Shown here piece after piece: positions 23,042 to 64,000 of a DNA stretch of 64,000 nucleotides. The notes under the pieces are model-generated. The model did not search any database and had not been told where the DNA came from. It saw nothing but the letters and a program-made list of their open reading frames with translations. The stretch comes from Mobula hypostoma (lineage: Eukaryota). The stretch spans positions 161,574,001 through 161,638,000 of the forward strand of contig NC_086097.1 in assembly GCF_963921235.1 (NCBI RefSeq). The letters are read 5' to 3'. Made by a program: the position numbers and the translations under genes. Position 1 is the first letter of the stretch. Each line of letters starts with the position of its first letter.

Positions 23042-23555
23042 CTGTAAAATCTTTAAGGCTGAACAAAGAGTAACCATTCTGTCAACAATTTCATCAGGTT
23101 TGAGTCCTGAAGAAGGATCTTGGCCCAAAATGTCGATTGTTTACACTTTTCCATAGGTGTTGCCTGGCCTGAAGTTCCTTCAGCATTTTGTGTGTGTCGC
23201 TTGGATTTCCAGCATCTGCAGATTTTCTCCTGTTTGCTGTCAACAACTGTATAGTATACATTAACCAAAGTAGAATAAATGATGCAAGGAAAATTATTAC
23301 ACTAGAACTCTGATAATCTGGTATGTACTATTGAATCTGATTATATATAGGAATTAACTTTGGGATACGCAGTGTAACCACAATTGCAAAATCTTTTACT
23401 TACAGAAATAACTTCACAAGTCCACACCTGACTTCTTGTACTGTGCCAATTTTGTGTCAAAAGGACATAAAATCATAAAACTTTTTATATCGGGAAAGAA
23501 ATGAATATCCATGTACCTGATTAAATCCCTAGTTTAAACCACCAGAAATATAGTA

Positions 23556-47035: not shown

Positions 47036-47264
47036 CATTGTGAGTGACTTCAACTTCCCCAACATAGACTGGGAACTCCTTAATACACAAAGTCAGAGAG
47101 GGCAGGATTGGTTAGAAGTCTCCAAGAGGATTTCCTGAAGCAGTATGTACAGTCAATTACAGGAGAAGCTATACAGTTATTGTACTGGGGAATGAACCCA
47201 GCCAGGTTACTGACCTGTAAGTGGGTGAACACTTGGGAAGCAACTTTAAGCTAGCTATGAATAA

Positions 47265-50200
47265 GAACATAGAACATAGAATAGCACAGCACAGTACAGG
47301 CCCTTCAGCCCAATGTTGTGCCGACCCTCAAACCCTGTCTCCCATATAAGCCCCCACCTTAAATTCCTCCATATACCTCTCTAGTCGTCTCTTAAACTTC
47401 GCTAGTGTATCTGCCTCCACCACTGACTCAGGCAGTGCATTCCATGCATCAACCACTCTCTGAGTAAAAAACCTTCCTCTAATATTCCCCTTGAACTTCC
47501 CACCCCTTACCTTAAAGCCACGTCCTCTTGTATTCAGCAGTGGTGCCCTGGGGAGGAGGCGCTGGCTATCCACTCTATCTATTCCTCTTGTTATCTTGTG
47601 CGCCTCTATCATGTCTCCTCTTATCCTCCTTCTCTCCAAAGAGTAAAGCCCCAGCTCCCTTAATCTCTGATCATAATGCTTACTCTCTAAACCAGGCAGC
47701 ATTCTGGTAAATCTCCTCTGTACCCTTTCCAATGCTTCCACATCCTTCCTACAGTGAGCCGACCAGAACTAGATACAGTACTCCAAGCGTGGCCTAACCA
47801 GAGTTTTATAGAGCTGCATCATTACATCGCGACTCTTAAACTCTATCCCTCGACTTATGAAAGCTAACACCCCATAAGCTTTCTTAACTACCCTATCCAC
47901 CTGTGAGGGAACTTTCAGGGATCTGTGGACATGTATCCCCAGATCCCTCTGCTCCTCCACACTACCAAGTATCCTGCCATTTACTTTGTACTCCGCCTTG
48001 GGAGTTTGTCCTTCCAAAGTGTACCACCTCATACTTCTCCGGGTTGAACTCCATCTGCCACTTCTCAGCCCACTTCTGCATCCTATCAATGTCTCTCTGC
48101 AATCTTTGATAATCCTCTACACCATCTACAACACCACCAACCTTTGTGTCGTCTGCAAACTTGCCAACCCACCCTTCTACCCCCACATCCAGGTCGTTAA
48201 TAAAAATCACGAAAAGTAGAGGTCCCAGAACAGATCCTTGTGGGACACCACTAGTCACAATCCTCCAATCTGAAAGTACTCCCTCCACCACCACCCTCTG
48301 CCTTCTGCAGGCAAGCCAATTCTGAATCTACCTGGCCAAACTTCCCTGGATCCCATGCCTTCTGACTTTCTGAATAAGCCTACCGTGTGGAACCCAGTCA
48401 AATGCCTTACTAAAATCCATATAGATCACATCCACTGCACTACCCTCATCTATATGCCTGGTCATCTCCTCAAAGAACTCTATCAGGCTTGTTAGACACA
48501 ATCTGCCCTTCACAAAGCCATGCTGACTGTCCCTGATCAGACCATGATTCTCTAAATGCCCAGAGATATATCTTTAAGAATCTTTTCCAATAGCTTTCCC
48601 ACCACAGACGTAAGGCTCACTGGTCTATAATTACCTGGACTATCCCTACTACCTTTTTGAACAAGGGGATAACATTCGCCTCCCTCCAATCCTCCAGTAC
48701 CATTCCCATGGACAACGAGGACATAAAGATCCTAGCCAGAGGCTCAGCAATCTCTTCCCTAGCCTCGTGGAGCAGCCTGGGGAATATTCCGTCAGGCCCC
48801 GGGGACTTAACCGTCCTAATGTATTTTAACAACTCCAACACCTCCTCTCCCTTAATATCAACATGCTCCAGAACATCAACCTCACTCATATTGTCCTCAC
48901 CATCAAGTTCCCACTCATTGGTGAATACTGAAGAGAAGTATTCATTGAGGACCTCGCTCACTTCCATAGCCTCCAGGCACATCTTCCCACCTTTATCTAT
49001 AATCAGTCCTACCTTCACTCCTGTCATCCTTTCTTTCTTCACATAATTGAAGAATGTCTTGGGGTTTTCCTTTACCTTACTCGCCAATGCCTTCTCATGT
49101 CCCCTTCTTGCTCTTCTCAGCCCCTTCTTAAGCTCCCTTCTTGCTTCCCTATATTCCCCAATAGACCCATCTGATCCTTGCTTCCTAAACCTCATATATG
49201 CTGCCTTCTTCCATCTGACTAGATTTTCCACCTCACTTGTCATCCATGGTTCCTTCACCCTACCAATCTTCATCTTCCTCACCGGGACAAATTTATCCCC
49301 AACATTCTGCAAGAGATCTCTAAACATCGACCATATGTCCATAGTACATTTCCCTGCAAAAACATCATCCCAATTCACACCCGCAAGTTCTAGCCTTATA
49401 GCCTCATAATTTGCCCTTCCCCAATTAAAAATTTTCCTGTCCTCTCTGATTCTATCCTTCTCCACGATAATGCTAAAGGCCAGGGAGCAGTGGTCACTGT
49501 CCCCCAGATGCTCACCCACTGAGAGATCTGTGACCTGACCCGGTTCATTACCTAGTACTAGATCTAGTATAGCATTCCCCCTAGTCAGCCTGTCCACATA
49601 CTGTGACAAGAATCCGTCCTGGACACACTTAACAAACTCCGCCCCATCTAAACCCTTGGAACTAATCAGGTGCCAATCAATATTAGGGAAGTTAAAGTCA
49701 CCCATGATAACAACCCTTCTATTTTTGCACCTTTCCAAAATCTGCCTCCCAATCTGCTCCTCTGTATCTCTGCTGCTACCAGGGGGCCTATAGAATACCC
49801 CCAGTGGAGTAACTGCTCTCTTCCTGTTCCTGACTTCCACCCATACCGACTCAAAAGAGGATCCTGCTACATTACCCACCCTTTCTGTAGCTGTAATAGT
49901 ATCCCTCACCAGTAATGCCACCCCTCCTCCCCTTTTTCCACCCTCTCTATCCCTTTTAAAGCACTGAAGTCCAGGAATATTGAGAATCCATTCCTGCCCT
50001 GGTGCCAGCCAAGTCTCTGTAATAGCCACTACATCATAATTCCATGTATGTATCCAAGCTCTCAGTTCATCACCTTTGTTCCTGATGCTTCTTGCACTGA
50101 GGTACACACACTTCAGCCCTTCTACCTTACTGTCTTTACACGGTTTATTCTGCTTCTCTTTGCTCAAAGCCTCTCTGTATGTTAGATCTGGCTTTACTCC

Positions 50201-50790
50201 ATGCACTTCTTTCACTGGTCTATCGCTCTGGGTCCCATCCCCCTTGCAAATTAGTTTAAACCCTCCCGAACCACGCTAGCAAACCTACCTGCAAGGATAT
50301 TGCTCCCCCTCGAGTTCAGGTGCAACCCATCCAATCTGTACAGGTCCCACCTTCCCCAGAAGAGATCCCAATGATCCAAAAATCTAAAACCCTGCCCCCT
50401 GCACCAACTTCTCAGCCACGCATTCAACTGCCATCTCCTCCAATTCTTACCATCACTGTCACGCAGCACTGGCAGCAATCCTGAGAACGCCACCCTTGAG
50501 GTCCTGTTCTTCAGCCTTCTGCTTAGTTCCCGAAACTCTCACTTCAGGACCTCATCCCTCTTCCTGCCTATGCCGTTGGTCCCTACATGTATCACAACTT
50601 CTGGTTGCTTTCCCTCTCGTACCAGGATGTCGTGCACCCAGTCAGAGACATCCCGGACCCTGGCACCCGGGAGGCAACAAATCATGTGGGTGTCCTTCTC
50701 ACATCCACAAAATCTCCTGTCTGCTCCCCTGACTATAGAGTCTCCAGCTGTCCTCTTCTCCGTGCCGGAGGCCCTGCCACCGTGGCTCAC
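47265..50790 (-). mobile_element. CR1 LINE, nearly full length: ORF1 SGNH esterase (~50251-50740), ORF2 EN+RT (47328-50260) with a few frameshifts, 3' repeat tail
   Basis: GDSIVRG, HVGTN and DGLHLN in ORF1; ITETW, GVFYRPP, GDFNFP, SDH, SPGPDGI, DFSKAFD, GVPQGSVLGPLLF and FADDTK in ORF2; (agaacat)n tail at 47265. Confidence 0.95.
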
Positions 50791-51604
50791 ACCTGGTCGG
50801 TCGTCCCTGCCAAAAGTATCCATAAAAATGTGTGGAGCTTGCAGTAAAGTATTAAATTGCAGGATTGAAAATTATATCATACAGGAGCAAAGTAAAAGTT
50901 AATTGGGAAAAATGTTTTCGGGCAAATCAACATCTGACATGTGGAGCTTGTTTAAAGATTAGATGCACTGAGTTCAGGACTGGTACGTTCCAGCAGAAGG
51001 AAGAACACAGATGGGAAGGTACACACTTTGGAAGATCCACAATTAATGGTAGGACCTTAAACAACAATGAAGAACAGAGGCACATGGGTCCACAGGTACA
51101 TGGCTCCCTAAAAGTGGCTGCACAGGTTGATAGGATGGTAAACATAGTATATATATGCATGCCATCATTAGTCAATATTGAGTTCAAGAGCCAGTAGGTT
51201 ACAAAACTGCTTTACAAAACTCTGATTAGGCTACATGGATGAATAAAGATATACGTAAAAATTATTGAAGACATTAAATTAGGAATACAGAAAAAAATGT
51301 AATGATGTTAATGCTAGGCCATATGAAAATATGAGAGCTAAAGTCAAGAGGGAAATTCGATTTCCAAAAGGCATCCTGAGAAGAATATTGCTGATGATCC
51401 TATGATTGACCCCAAGAGATTTGTTCAATACTTCAGGAATAAAAGAAGTCAAGGAGGAAGTTAATTGTATTAGAAATAATAGTGGGGTGTTAAATTATGC
51501 AGAGAAGGACAAACCGAATTCTCTGAACTCATATTTTGCTATAGTATTCACTGTGAAGAAGTTAGCAATCTGCCAGTAAATGTAGAGAAAAATAAGGTTG
51601 TTTT

Positions 51605-59239: not shown

Positions 59240-60420
59240 AGACAATAGACAATAGGCAATAGGCGCAGGAGTAGACAATAGGCAATAGGCGCAATAGGCC
59301 ATTCGGCCCTTCGAGCCAGCACCGCCATTCACTGTGATCATGGCTGATCGTCCACTATCAGTATCCAGTTCCTGTCTTATCCCCATAACCTTTGATTCCA
59401 CTATCTTTAAGAGCTCTATCCATCTCTTTCTTGAAAGCATCCAGAGACTTGGCCTCCACAGTCTTCTGGGGCAGAGCATTCCATATATCCACCACTCTCT
59501 GGGTGAAAAAGTTTTTCCTCAACTCTGTTCTAAATGGCCTACCCCTTATTCTTAAACTGTGGCCTCTGGTTCTGGACTCACCCATCAGTGGGAACATGCT
59601 TCCTGCCTCCAGCGTGTCCAATCCTTTAATAATCTTATATGTTTCAATAAGATCCCCTCTCAGTCTTCTAAATTCCAGAGTATACAAGCCCAGTCGCTCC
59701 AATCTTTCGACGTATGACAGTCCCGCCATCCTGGGAATTAACCTTGTGAACCTACGCTGCACTCCCTCAATAGCAAGAATGTCCTTCCTCAAATTTGGAG
59801 ACCAAAACTGCACACAGTACTCCAGGTGTGGTCTCACCAGGGCCCTGTACAGTTGTAGAAGGACCTCTTTGCTCTTATACTCAATTCCCCTTGTTATGAA
59901 GGCCAGCATGCCATTAGCTTTCTTCACTGCCTGCTGTACTTGCATGCTTGCTTTCAGTGACTAATGTACAAGAACACCTAGATCTCGTTGTGCTTCTCCT
60001 TTTCCTAACTTGACTCCATTTAGATAATAATCTGCCTTCCCGTTCTTACCACCAAAGTGGATAACCTCACATTTATCCACATTAAACTGCATCTGCCAAC
60101 TCACCCAGCCTGTCCAAGTCACCCTGCATTCTCATAACATCCTCCTCACATTTCACACTGCCACCCAGCTTTGTGTCATCAGCAAATTTGCTAATATTAC
60201 TTTTAATTCCCTCATCTAAATATATATTGTAAACAGCTGCGGTCCCAGCACTGAACCCCGCAGTACCCCACTGGTCACCACCTACCATTCCGAAAGGGGC
60301 CTGTTAATTGCTACTCTTTGTTTTCTGTCAGCCAGCCAATTTTCAATCCATGTCAGGACTCTGCCTCCAATACCATGTGCCCTAATTTTGCCCACTAATC
60401 TCCTATGTGGGACTTTACCA
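59240..60420 (-). mobile_element. CR1 LINE 3' portion with open ORF2 C-terminus
   Basis: ORF 59358..59945 has LVRPHLEYCVQFWSP and RRLRGDLIETYKI; KFADDTKLGG upstream; tail of (ctattg(t/c))-like repeats. Confidence 0.92.
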
Positions 60421-61686
60421 GGAGTTGGACAAATCGTACTCTGACCATGCAATACCTCAATTAATTCGGCTACTGAATTTAAAACAAAAATCAACAGAAT
60501 TACCGCTTGGAAGTCTAAGCAAAACCAGTAGACTTAATAGCAGTAAATGTAATAGTTTAGGATTTGCAGGAAACATAAGGACTATGGGGTATCCACCACA
60601 AAATAATAATAAGAATACTCAGCATTAGTTTTGGCCCAAATTTTTTTAAAAATCAACTGCACTCACAATTGATGTTTTCAGAGAAGTACAATCTGTCTGT
60701 TGTTGTGACTGGTGGTGAAAGCATCAATGATTTTCTGGATGTCAAGTGCTTTGGTCCTCCGGCTGCTTATGGCCAACAGGGCTAAGTAGCTGTTCCAAGC
60801 ATCACTGCTGCTATTTCTTAGGTAGTTTTTGAGGCGTATTCAACAAGATAAACTCCGTTTGCATGAGGAGATGTCACAGGTAGAGTCAGTGATATGCGGA
60901 TTAGTTTGTATAAATCTATAAATGCATCGCGGCAGGGTCTCATTGAAGCTAGAAATTCCACAGTGTCATTCACTCTCTGTCCTTGCTAGAGACTCAACCA
61001 CAGCTCTCATATACTCACGATTTTCTTGGACAATCTTTGCCCTTGTCAAGCATATTTCCCAATCTTGAATCATCTTGTTTTCTCAATCTGAATTCGGCCC
61101 GTGCTTCCATAGCAAACTTATGAGCTGCACTTATATGGTGGGTTTTGAAAGCTGTTGTAGTTTTCCACCAGTTGCAGTAACCGGTGACAGTGAAGGTAGA
61201 CTCAGAATGGAACCCATGTCCTCCATACAGGAAATGCCTGCATGTGAAGCAGAACGTAGTACCTTTCGTGATCGAATATTCCAGTCAGTCAAACCAGCCA
61301 CAAATAAAACTCCTCTGCTGATTGCCAAGCTTGTTCCAATCAGCGAAGGGTACTTTCTCAATGCTGGCCAACGGGGTCCTTCCTCAGGCTGCTGGCTAAC
61401 ATCACTGACAGTATTGCCACTAGCACTAAGAGCAACTTCATCCACGTTCTCTTCCAAATCCCGTTCCATTTCTTGTTCTTCCACCTCGTCCTCGCACTCC
61501 TTCGATGAACTACTGTTGTCCTCATCCCCACTTACTTGTTTCTGCATGTCACTTTCAATTAAGACATGCTCAGGCCGAGACACCAGTGATTCCTCTGGTT
61601 GAGGTCGTTGTCTCACTAAAAATTGATCCATTTTTCATGCTGGCCAAAATAATGCACGTGCCAGGCCCACGCTAGCTTGTAAAAAC

Positions 61687-62229: not shown

Positions 62230-64000
62230 CAAGAACAAGACTGCGCAGACGTGTGACGTCGGGCAGTGAAGCGCGGGAGATTTAAAAGGAACAGAGCTTC
62301 GTACAGTGGGCAGCATAGTTTGCGGGCGGCAGAGTGAGCCGGGAGCACAGTGAAGGCTTAAGGGCTTTGGCTCAACGGGCTTAGGCGGAAACGGGTAAGG
62401 TGAGGAAGGTTTGGTATTCATTTTTTGTTGTTATTTGAGGAGAGGGGCAGTATGAGGGTAAGGGCAGCTTGTTGTTCTAGGTGCCGGATGTGGGAGGCCC
62501 TGGAGTCTCCAAGCCTCCCGGACGTCCACATCTGCGCCAGGTGCACCGAGATGCAGCTCCTAAGGGACCGCGTTAGGGAACTGGAGCTGTAGCTCGATGA
62601 CCTTCGTCTGGTCAGGGAGAGCGAGGAGTTGATAGAGAGGAGTTACAGGCAGGTGGTCACACCGGGGCCACGGGAGGCAGACAAGTGGGTCACGGTTAGG
62701 AGGGGGAAGGGGAAGAGTCAGGAAATAGAGAGTACCCCAGTGGCTGTGCCCCTTAACAATAGGTACTCCTGTTTGAGTACTGTTGAGGGGGACAGCTTAC
62801 CTGGGGGAAGTGACAGTAGCCGTGCCTCCGGCACAGAGTCTGGCCCTATAGCTCAGAAGGGTAGGGAAAGGAAGAGGAAGGCAGTTGTAACAGGGGACTC
62901 GATAGTAAGGGGGTCAGATAGGCGATTCTGTGGATGCAGTCCAGAGACCCGGATGGTAGTTTCCCTCCCTGGTGCCAGGGTCCGGGATATTTCTGATCGC
63001 GTCCAAGATATCCTGAAGTGGGAGGGTGAGGAGACAGAGGTCGTGGTACATATAGGTACCAATGACATAGGTAGGAAAAGGGAAGAGGTCCTGAAAGGAG
63101 AATATAGGGAGTTAGGAAGGGAGTTGAGAAAAAGGACCGCAAAGGTAGTAATCTCGGGATTACTGCCTGTGCCACACGACAGTGAGAGTAGGAATGCAAT
63201 GAGGTGGAGGATAAATGCGTGGCTGAGGGATTGGAGCAGGGGGCAAGGATTCAAGTTTTTGGATCATTGGGACCTCTTTTGGCGCGGGTGTGACCCCTAC
63301 AAAAAGGACGGGTTACACTTGAATCCTAGGGGGACCAATACCCTGGCGGGGAGATTTGCGACGGCTACTGAGGTGACTTTAAACTAGAATGGTTGGGGGG
63401 TGGGAAGCAAATTAAAGAGACTAGGAGAGAGGAGGTTAGTTCACAAAAGGGGGATGGGAACAAGTGCAGAGAGACAGAGGGGTGTAAAATGAGGGTAGAA
63501 GCAAAAAGTAGTAATGGCAGGCCAGCAAATCCAGGGCAAAAATCAAAATGGGCCACTTCTCAACAAAATTTTATAAGGGCTAAGAGTGTTGTAAAAGCGA
63601 GCCTGAAGGCTTTGTGTGTCAATGCAAGGAGCATTTGTAACAAGGTGGATGAATTAAAAGTGCAGATTGTTATTAATGAATATGATATAGTTGGGATCAC
63701 AGAGACATGGCTCCAGGGTGACCAAGGATGGGAGCTCAACATTCAGGGATATTCAATATTCAGGAGGGATAGACATGAAAGAAAAGGAGGTGGGGTAGCA
63801 TTGCTGGTTAGAGAGGAGATTAACACAATAGAAAGGAAGGACATTAGCCGGGAGGATGTGGAATCGATATGGGTAGAGCTGCATAACACTAAGGGGCAGA
63901 AAACGCTGGTGGGAGTTGTGTACAGGCCACCTAACAATAGTAGTGAGGTTGGGGATGGTATTAAACAAGAAATTAGAAATGCGTGCAATAAAGGAACAGC
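62230..64000 (+). mobile_element. CR1 LINE 5' end: CpG-rich 5' UTR, ORF1 (62452-63387; Zn finger, coiled coil, SGNH esterase; one TAG at 62590) and start of the ORF2 endonuclease, running off the window
   Basis: CCSRC...HICARC, LRDRVRELEL, GDSIVRG, HIGTND and DGLHLN in ORF1; NARSI.NK.DEL, ITETW, GGGVALLV and GVVYRPP in ORF2. Confidence 0.93.

Follow-up and report, generated by a model that had tools for sequence, protein, structure and literature searches.

A -1 frameshift operates at the retroviral gag-pol junction, as in RSV, and at the coronavirus 1a/1b junction, as in IBV with the heptamer U_UUA_AAC, which together with G_GGA_AAC and A_AAA_AAC makes up three of the four heptamers named as most shifty, with U_UUU_UUA also among the slippery heptamers listed (PMC5009743). 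In PRRSV, a short motif, CCCANCUCC, lies 11 nt on the 3' side of the shift site, where it is bound by nsp1-beta and PCBP, and the shift site of pea enation mosaic virus requires a nearby stop codon of any identity (PMC5009743). Natural quadruplexes that stimulate frameshifting were anticipated, with none known as of 2016 (PMC5009743). Among retroelements, the ORF1 of Penelope-like elements can be set apart by a frameshift at which a pseudoknot is annotated (legend to Fig. 1 of PMC8557442), a frameshift has been proposed for HeT-A gag (PMC5009743), and a +1 frameshift or reinitiation has been suggested for groups 1 and 2 of Paramecium LINEs (PMC5405496). Other two-ORF LINEs are described differently: SART1 uses translational coupling at UAAUG (PMC3894237), L1 makes ORF2 by reinitiation (PMC3708506), and the translation of ORF2 in such elements is treated as an open question (PMC3894237, PMC3708506). 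In most vertebrates, no LINE group is more abundant than CR1; vertebrate CR1 and L2 carry an esterase as their sole type of ORF1 (PMC13343379), and this esterase is self-associating and lipid-binding (PMC3905857).

For Dictyostelium TRE5-A, a frameshift has reportedly been proposed as well. No text supporting it was found in the excerpt of PMC5006619. Our search of the literature, by title and abstract start, found no report of frameshifting in CR1; the chicken and turtle CR1 papers of 1997-2001, Kojima 2005, Kapitonov and Jurka 2003, Repbase notes, and supplements lie outside that coverage and may mention the site. The main text of a 2026 survey of vertebrate CR1 (PMC13343379) contains none of the terms frameshift, slippery, overlap, and start codon, and the excerpts of PMC3894237, PMC3905857, and PMC3708506 do not mention frameshifting. 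The first 300,000 of the 449,034 characters of PMC5009743 do not contain 'CR1', and the excerpts of PMC6609765, PMC11835228, and PMC8535693 contain nothing relevant.

Here, we analyzed a window of 64,000 nucleotides from the genome of the ray Mobula hypostoma, for which an earlier note had proposed that a CR1 element joins its two proteins by programmed -1 frameshifting. Comparison with related sequences supports this proposal, and we consider it likely that a conserved in-phase heptamer at the end of ORF1 drives a programmed -1 frameshift, from which a fusion of esterase, endonuclease, and reverse transcriptase (ORF1p-ORF2p) would result.

The ORF1 end of the window element

The CR1-type ORF1 in the window (Table 1) combines a Cys-rich, coiled-coil-like N-terminal part with a C-terminal SGNH/GDSL esterase (Pfam Lipase_GDSL_2, E 4e-16), and the ORF2 that follows begins with an AP-type endonuclease (Exo_endo_phos, E 5e-6), both as in a canonical CR1 LINE. 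Its closest homologue is another Mobula sequence with 91% identity, and a profile built from its relatives matched chain 4c1b, the ORF1 esterase of zebrafish ZfL2-1, with an E of 9e-44. In the esterase tree, the window ORF1 stands beside bird-type (Calypte) ORF1s at a fork with a support of 91, which we count as open. A premature TAG breaks the reading frame of ORF1, so this copy is dead and incapable of producing a frameshift fusion, and the frameshift claim therefore concerns the family and not the single copy. An unrelated acidic ORF fragment lies beside a (GT)n microsatellite (61069-61634) a short way upstream of the element, and the minus strand at 59349-60416 holds the 3' part of a further CR1 that is close to the family of the window copy.

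Table 1. Features at the CR1 junctions; positions are those of the window unless a locus is named.
Feature	Position	Strand	Remarks
CR1-type LINE ORF1	62452..63387	+	ATG 62452; 311 codons; interrupted at 62590-62592
Slippery heptamer T_TTA_AAC	63378..63384	+	final two sense codons of ORF1 and the preceding base
ORF1 stop, abutting the heptamer	63385..63387	+	TAG here; TAA/TGA in relatives
G-tract, candidate stimulator, unstructured	63395..63404	+	GGGG 63396-63399 invariant in the vertebrate rows reaching it
ORF2, -1 frame	63378..64000	+	~75-codon leader; AP-type endonuclease from ~63603; window ends before RT
First in-frame ATG of ORF2 (rival start)	63489..63491	+	third ATG after the stop
Second CR1 copy	47260..50823	-	5'-truncated; end of ORF1 decayed; EN and RT in ORF2; 3' tail of short repeats
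Second-copy junction	50233..50260	-	TTTAAAC, TAA, G-tract; heptamer 50260-50254
Heptamer U_UUU_UUA of L067	L067:1182-1194		in phase, one codon before the ORF1 stop; Met-free leader

The earlier note had read the end of ORF1 as ACT TTA AAC TAG, and this reading holds: TTTAAAC lies in the X_XXY_YYZ phase, that is, in the zero-frame phase of a classical -1 frameshift site, with the stop codon immediately 3' of it. When all 309 codon positions of ORF1 were scanned for canonical heptamers in phase, TTTAAAC was the only one. The 9-mer by itself is not rare in the window, being found 3 times against 0.93 expected, a count that 6 of 100 shuffles reach, and our case is built on position, phase, and conservation. 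An occurrence of TTTAAACTA at 23530-23538, outside all LINE matches, was set aside as chance.

A second CR1 copy in the window, with an esterase 65% identical to that of the first, ends its ORF1 with GGT TTA AAC TAA. From the heptamer through the endonuclease, its -1 frame runs for 187 codons without a Met, and tblastn with PF00078-bearing proteins placed its reverse transcriptase at ~48650-47370. CR1 elements end in short tandem repeats and have no poly(A), and the 3' end of this copy consists of short TTCTATG-type repeats.

Conservation and exchange of the heptamer

Relatives were collected from DNA by a metagenome scan that used peptide patterns from the N-terminal part of the esterase and was thus blind to the junction. 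The scan gave 55 loci, 36 of which stop short of the junction or have no match there, leaving 17 amniote-like and 2 distant loci that span it; the label "amniote-like" follows from two of the loci, which group with hummingbird ORF1s. TTTAAAC is exact in 14 of the 17 amniote-like loci, and the remaining three read TTTTAAC, TTTACGA, and TTTAAAA. For 13 of the 17, the end of ORF1 was set by tblastn alone, and 11 of these carry exact TTTAAAC; in the other 4, which have upstream indels, the end was placed by the best motif match within 20 nt, a procedure that biases these four. The esterases of the ray copies and of the amniote-like copies tested are 31-34% identical.

The earlier note had asked whether TTTAAAC, the stop, and the -1 phase are more conserved than neighboring synonymous sites. 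Across 19 vertebrate rows, the third-codon positions of the heptamer are T in 19, A in 18, and C in 17, and at ten third positions upstream the commonest base accounts for 0.37-0.68 of the same rows. In the 12 rows whose frame is intact, the 60 codons ahead of this point use TTA for 4 of 80 Leu and AAC for 8 of 31 Asn. The Leu-Asn codons at the junction therefore show almost no synonymous variation, whereas neighboring codons vary, and the heptamer is conserved beyond coding need, as in a classical -1 frameshift site. TTTAAAC and the -1 phase are kept, but the identity of the stop is not, as it switches among TAG, TAA, and TGA in relatives and is absent from three decayed rows.

Within the family of the window copy, sampled through sequencing-run contigs from four organisms (15,452 contigs over 63240-63560), no variant falls in 63375-63406 among the rows listed (40 of the 64 variant rows), and the same rows hold 10 variants in 63357-63374 and 7 in 63407-63428. 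Loose ends of other families that cross the junction carry TTTAAAC followed by TAA or TGA in 5 of the 6 rows listed, and the one that differs is a single contig. Nothing useful was found for relatives in viral contigs; prokaryote genomes gave 31 bacterial SGNH loci, phages two weak esterases, and the count for plasmids scanned for relatives was zero. Two shark-type CR1 proteins, P0029 and P0229, are deposited under bacterial names (Pseudomonas and Carnobacterium), likely as host contamination.

The two distant loci are sisters with 39% identity to each other. One of them, L063 (~30% identical), ends its ORF1 with AAT TTA AAC TAG. The other, L067, ends with TCT TTT TTA GCG TAG and has in place of TTTAAAC the HIV-type heptamer U_UUU_UUA; no stimulator was found 3' of it. 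Both loci have -1 frames free of Met and stop codons that lead into the endonuclease, over 49 codons in L063 and 67 in L067.

ORF1 proteins point to further exchanges. Of 223 sequences, 154 have intact ends (query included), and these comprise 100 ending in LN, 9 in GN (8 QGN, 1 SGN), 1 in KN, and 44 in other residues. LN, QGN/SGN, and SKN fit what would be the products of T_TTA_AAC, G_GGA_AAC, and A_AAA_AAC, where the GN and KN heptamers are deduced from protein. The residue before LN takes 13 values, and a residue without a T-ending codon (E, Q, K, M, W) stands there in 1 of 82 distinct ends, as opposed to 112 of 656 nearby residues (p 1.4e-5, a value that overstates independence, given the relatedness of the rows and the excess of cartilaginous fish among them) and 717 of 3440 residues ahead of interior Leu. 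A quick ORF1 tree of 85 thinned rows, made with the last residues removed and with 29 of 82 inner branches open, places LN ends in at least three deep groups and GN and KN together in one clade. The esterase clades P0161-P0220 and P0167-P0226 are without LN, GN, or KN ends, and the ZfL2-1 chain ends before the LN columns; the LN-type end is wide yet not universal among esterase LINEs. Elements without such ends would make natural negative controls that reach ORF2 in another way.

These ends bear on the idea that the protein itself, through a C-terminal Leu-Asn, or an unrelated nucleic-acid signal (a splice acceptor, poly(A), or nuclease site) keeps the motif in place and that the -1 phase is passively inherited. 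L and N are indeed invariant columns in protein alignments, and a conserved motif may act outside translation. However, a protein constraint cannot fix the rare TTA, the AAC, and the preceding T, and the ends shift to GN, KN, or FLA in relatives; nor would a passive phase account for leaders of 33-84 codons that hold it and stay free of stops. We regard this idea as very improbable. The splice acceptor in particular is excluded, since the TAA and TGA stops of relatives do not keep the AG of TAG.

The -1 frame and the start of ORF2

As the earlier note had it, the -1 frame of the window copy runs on into the endonuclease; it contains no stop between 63372 and the window end. Fourteen loci contain both the junction and the start of the endonuclease (11 were scored by script and the window copy separately), and 12 of them have the endonuclease in a stop-free -1 frame, which is the open downstream ORF of a classical -1 frameshift site. 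In the other 2, the endonuclease is in the +1 frame, and no other open frame into the endonuclease was found in the 11 loci scored by script. Decay, as a putative cause, explains both these 2 loci and the 3 heptamer deviations among the 17 amniote-like loci. The leader between heptamer and endonuclease measures 33-84 codons. Of 21 rows, 20 have no Met in the -1 frame upstream of the heptamer, and in 12 that frame is closed by a stop within 5 codons, which means that ORF2 does not start upstream of the heptamer; a start at an upstream AUG was rejected on the same count.

A search for longer fused proteins gave 2 matches. In the ray proteins P0227 and P0038, esterase, FKL, and endonuclease are continuous, and one of the two is named 'hydroxyacid oxidase 2'. 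They are single gene models, most likely mis-annotated LINE copies with an indel, and hence count only as evidence for an open -1 leader.

The earlier note had also offered the in-frame ATG at 63489 as an alternative start of ORF2. This ATG is present, preceded by out-of-frame ATGs at 63389 and 63454; it has a good context (A at -3), and the Met is kept in two relatives, P0238 and P0241. ORF2 could accordingly be made as a separate protein by termination and reinitiation, at a nearby AUG, at a UAAUG as in SART1 (PMC3894237), or independently of AUG, and TTTAAAC-stop-GGGG would then be a signal that holds the ribosome after termination. An in-frame AUG within 0-2 nt of the stop (-1-frame codon 3-4, at +9 or +12) occurs in 6 of the 12 in-phase loci, and TAATG is found in L055, the only one of 21 rows to have it, as well as in some loose ends of other shark families. 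The window copy has no TAATG, though, and coupling of the SART1 type is not what the rows show. Four of the 12 in-phase loci (W2, L053, L063, and L067) have no Met before the endonuclease, two more have their first Met at codon 22 or 37, and the +12 AUG is not conserved, its codon elsewhere being TTG, TCG, TGG, TGC, GAC, or GAA. The out-of-frame ATGs ahead of 63489 also speak against reinitiation there. Because human L1 reinitiates ORF2 even without an AUG, the lack of a Met alone does not dispose of this route. Reinitiation predicts neither a switch to another canonical heptamer nor a frame that opens exactly at the heptamer, and we find it unlikely to be how ORF2 is made.

A mixture of routes is also conceivable, in which free ORF2p would be reinitiated, in addition to the frameshift fusion or instead of it, wherever an AUG lies close to the stop. 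An intact heptamer and an in-frame AUG at +9 or +12 coexist in about half of the amniote-like loci, but the AUG is unconserved even among amniote-like copies, and we are doubtful of this mixture. It refines our preferred explanation, and its frameshift part is already contained in the likelihood that we give to the latter.

In the preferred explanation, programmed -1 frameshifting, most ribosomes would end translation at the stop codon next to U_UUA_AAC, setting ORF1p free. In a minority, tRNA-Leu and tRNA-Asn would slip back by one base on the heptamer, and these ribosomes would continue through the linker of variable length into the endonuclease. From the observed position, phase, and nucleotide-level conservation of the heptamer, its exchange for other slippery heptamers, and the open -1 frame, we infer the slippage, the fusion product, and a role of the stop and the G-tract. 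No protease domain was detected between the CR1 esterase and the endonuclease, so the fusion would likely remain uncleaved or rely on a host protease.

The downstream region and known frameshift systems

The G-rich tract that the earlier note had pointed out does start 7 bases past the heptamer, at 63391. In the vertebrate rows that reach it, the GGGG at offsets +18 to +21 is present in 18/18, 18/18, 17/17, and 17/17 rows; it begins 11 nt past the heptamer with a spacing that is free of gaps from rays to birds, and a second run of G follows. Because GGGG covers the third position of a -1-frame Gly codon, the constraint is on the nucleotides. As in PRRSV, a short conserved motif thus follows the shift site at ~11 nt, though here it is G-rich.

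The folding that the earlier note had called for did not bear out a structured stimulator. In the window copy, the 80-150 nt that follow the heptamer fold no more stably than shuffled sequence (z +0.41 to +1.35), the 17 vertebrate rows have no conserved 3' fold (z -1.39 to +1.13), and 3' of the heptamer we found neither a conserved hairpin nor a conserved stem of a pseudoknot, pseudoknots being considered without explicit modelling. The stem-loop or pseudoknot 5-9 nt downstream that marks a classical -1 frameshift site was therefore not found, and the stimulator is neither a classical stem nor a classical pseudoknot. L063 alone has a hairpin where one would be expected (z -2.73). At L063:1618-1655, T_TTA_AAC is followed at a spacing of 7-8 nt by a compact hairpin, which replaces the vertebrate G-tract. 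Only 3 of 19 rows have a predicted two-tier quadruplex, Rfam gave no match and no frameshift family at the junction, and a duplex scan of 8 elements found no long-range partner of the G-tract common to them. In the same scan, pyrimidine-rich codons of a CLPGA motif ~420 nt upstream (62958-62987; also in L035, L044, and L053) pair with the G-tract and are among its four best duplex partners in 4 of the 8 elements, probably as a by-product of composition.

The junction is deeply conserved, and it would function like a viral -1 site while failing to show the classical structure. The pause would most likely come from the adjacent stop and the unstructured G-tract 10-11 nt downstream with no classical pseudoknot, and the G-tract may act through a bound protein or a weak quadruplex. 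A bolder and more tentative version is that canonical CR1 LINEs, which dominate the retrotransposons of most vertebrates, use a -1 frameshift to join their reverse transcriptase to a lipid-binding esterase in the manner of Gag-Pol. The stimulator would be of a new type, kept from rays to birds: an adjacent stop plus an unstructured G-tract at a fixed 11-nt spacing, and this G-tract would either be recognized by a trans-acting protein (ORF1p itself or a host protein that binds G runs) or form a natural quadruplex; we hold this to be possible and no more than that.

If true, frameshifting in CR1 would answer how such elements translate ORF2, and the conserved slippery site would offer a precise and cheap handle on this step. 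ORF2p would carry the self-associating, lipid-binding esterase of ORF1, a functional parallel to Gag-Pol, and annotations of CR1 ORF2 that begin at the first Met would be wrong. The G-tract would also be a natural stimulator of the kind anticipated for quadruplexes.

The CR1 junction shares with the frameshift sites of retroviruses and coronaviruses the class and phase of the heptamer that closes the first ORF, and in both cases a structural or RNA-packaging ORF comes first and the polymerase ORF follows in the -1 frame. Unlike these viruses, CR1 is a non-LTR element, and no stem of a stem-loop or pseudoknot was found 3' of its site. PRRSV is similar in that both have a short unstructured motif at a fixed spacing of 10-11 nt, but the PRRSV motif is C-rich and has known binding proteins, whereas that of CR1 is G-rich and only a candidate. 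As in pea enation mosaic virus, a stop of variable identity lies close behind the shift site, and in CR1 it is directly adjacent.

Among retroelements, Penelope-like elements resemble CR1 in being LTR-free and in having ORF1 joined to the reverse transcriptase by a frameshift, which in CR1 is our reading of the sequences; they belong to a different class, with a GIY-YIG endonuclease and an annotated pseudoknot that has no counterpart found in CR1. The proposals for HeT-A, Paramecium, and TRE5-A concern other clades and a shift in another direction or within gag, and none of them involves CR1 or a heptamer shared from rays to birds. SART1 and L1 are, like CR1, APE-type LINEs with two ORFs on one mRNA, but where they reinitiate, CR1 is without a conserved stop-start overlap or AUG and conserves a slippery heptamer instead.
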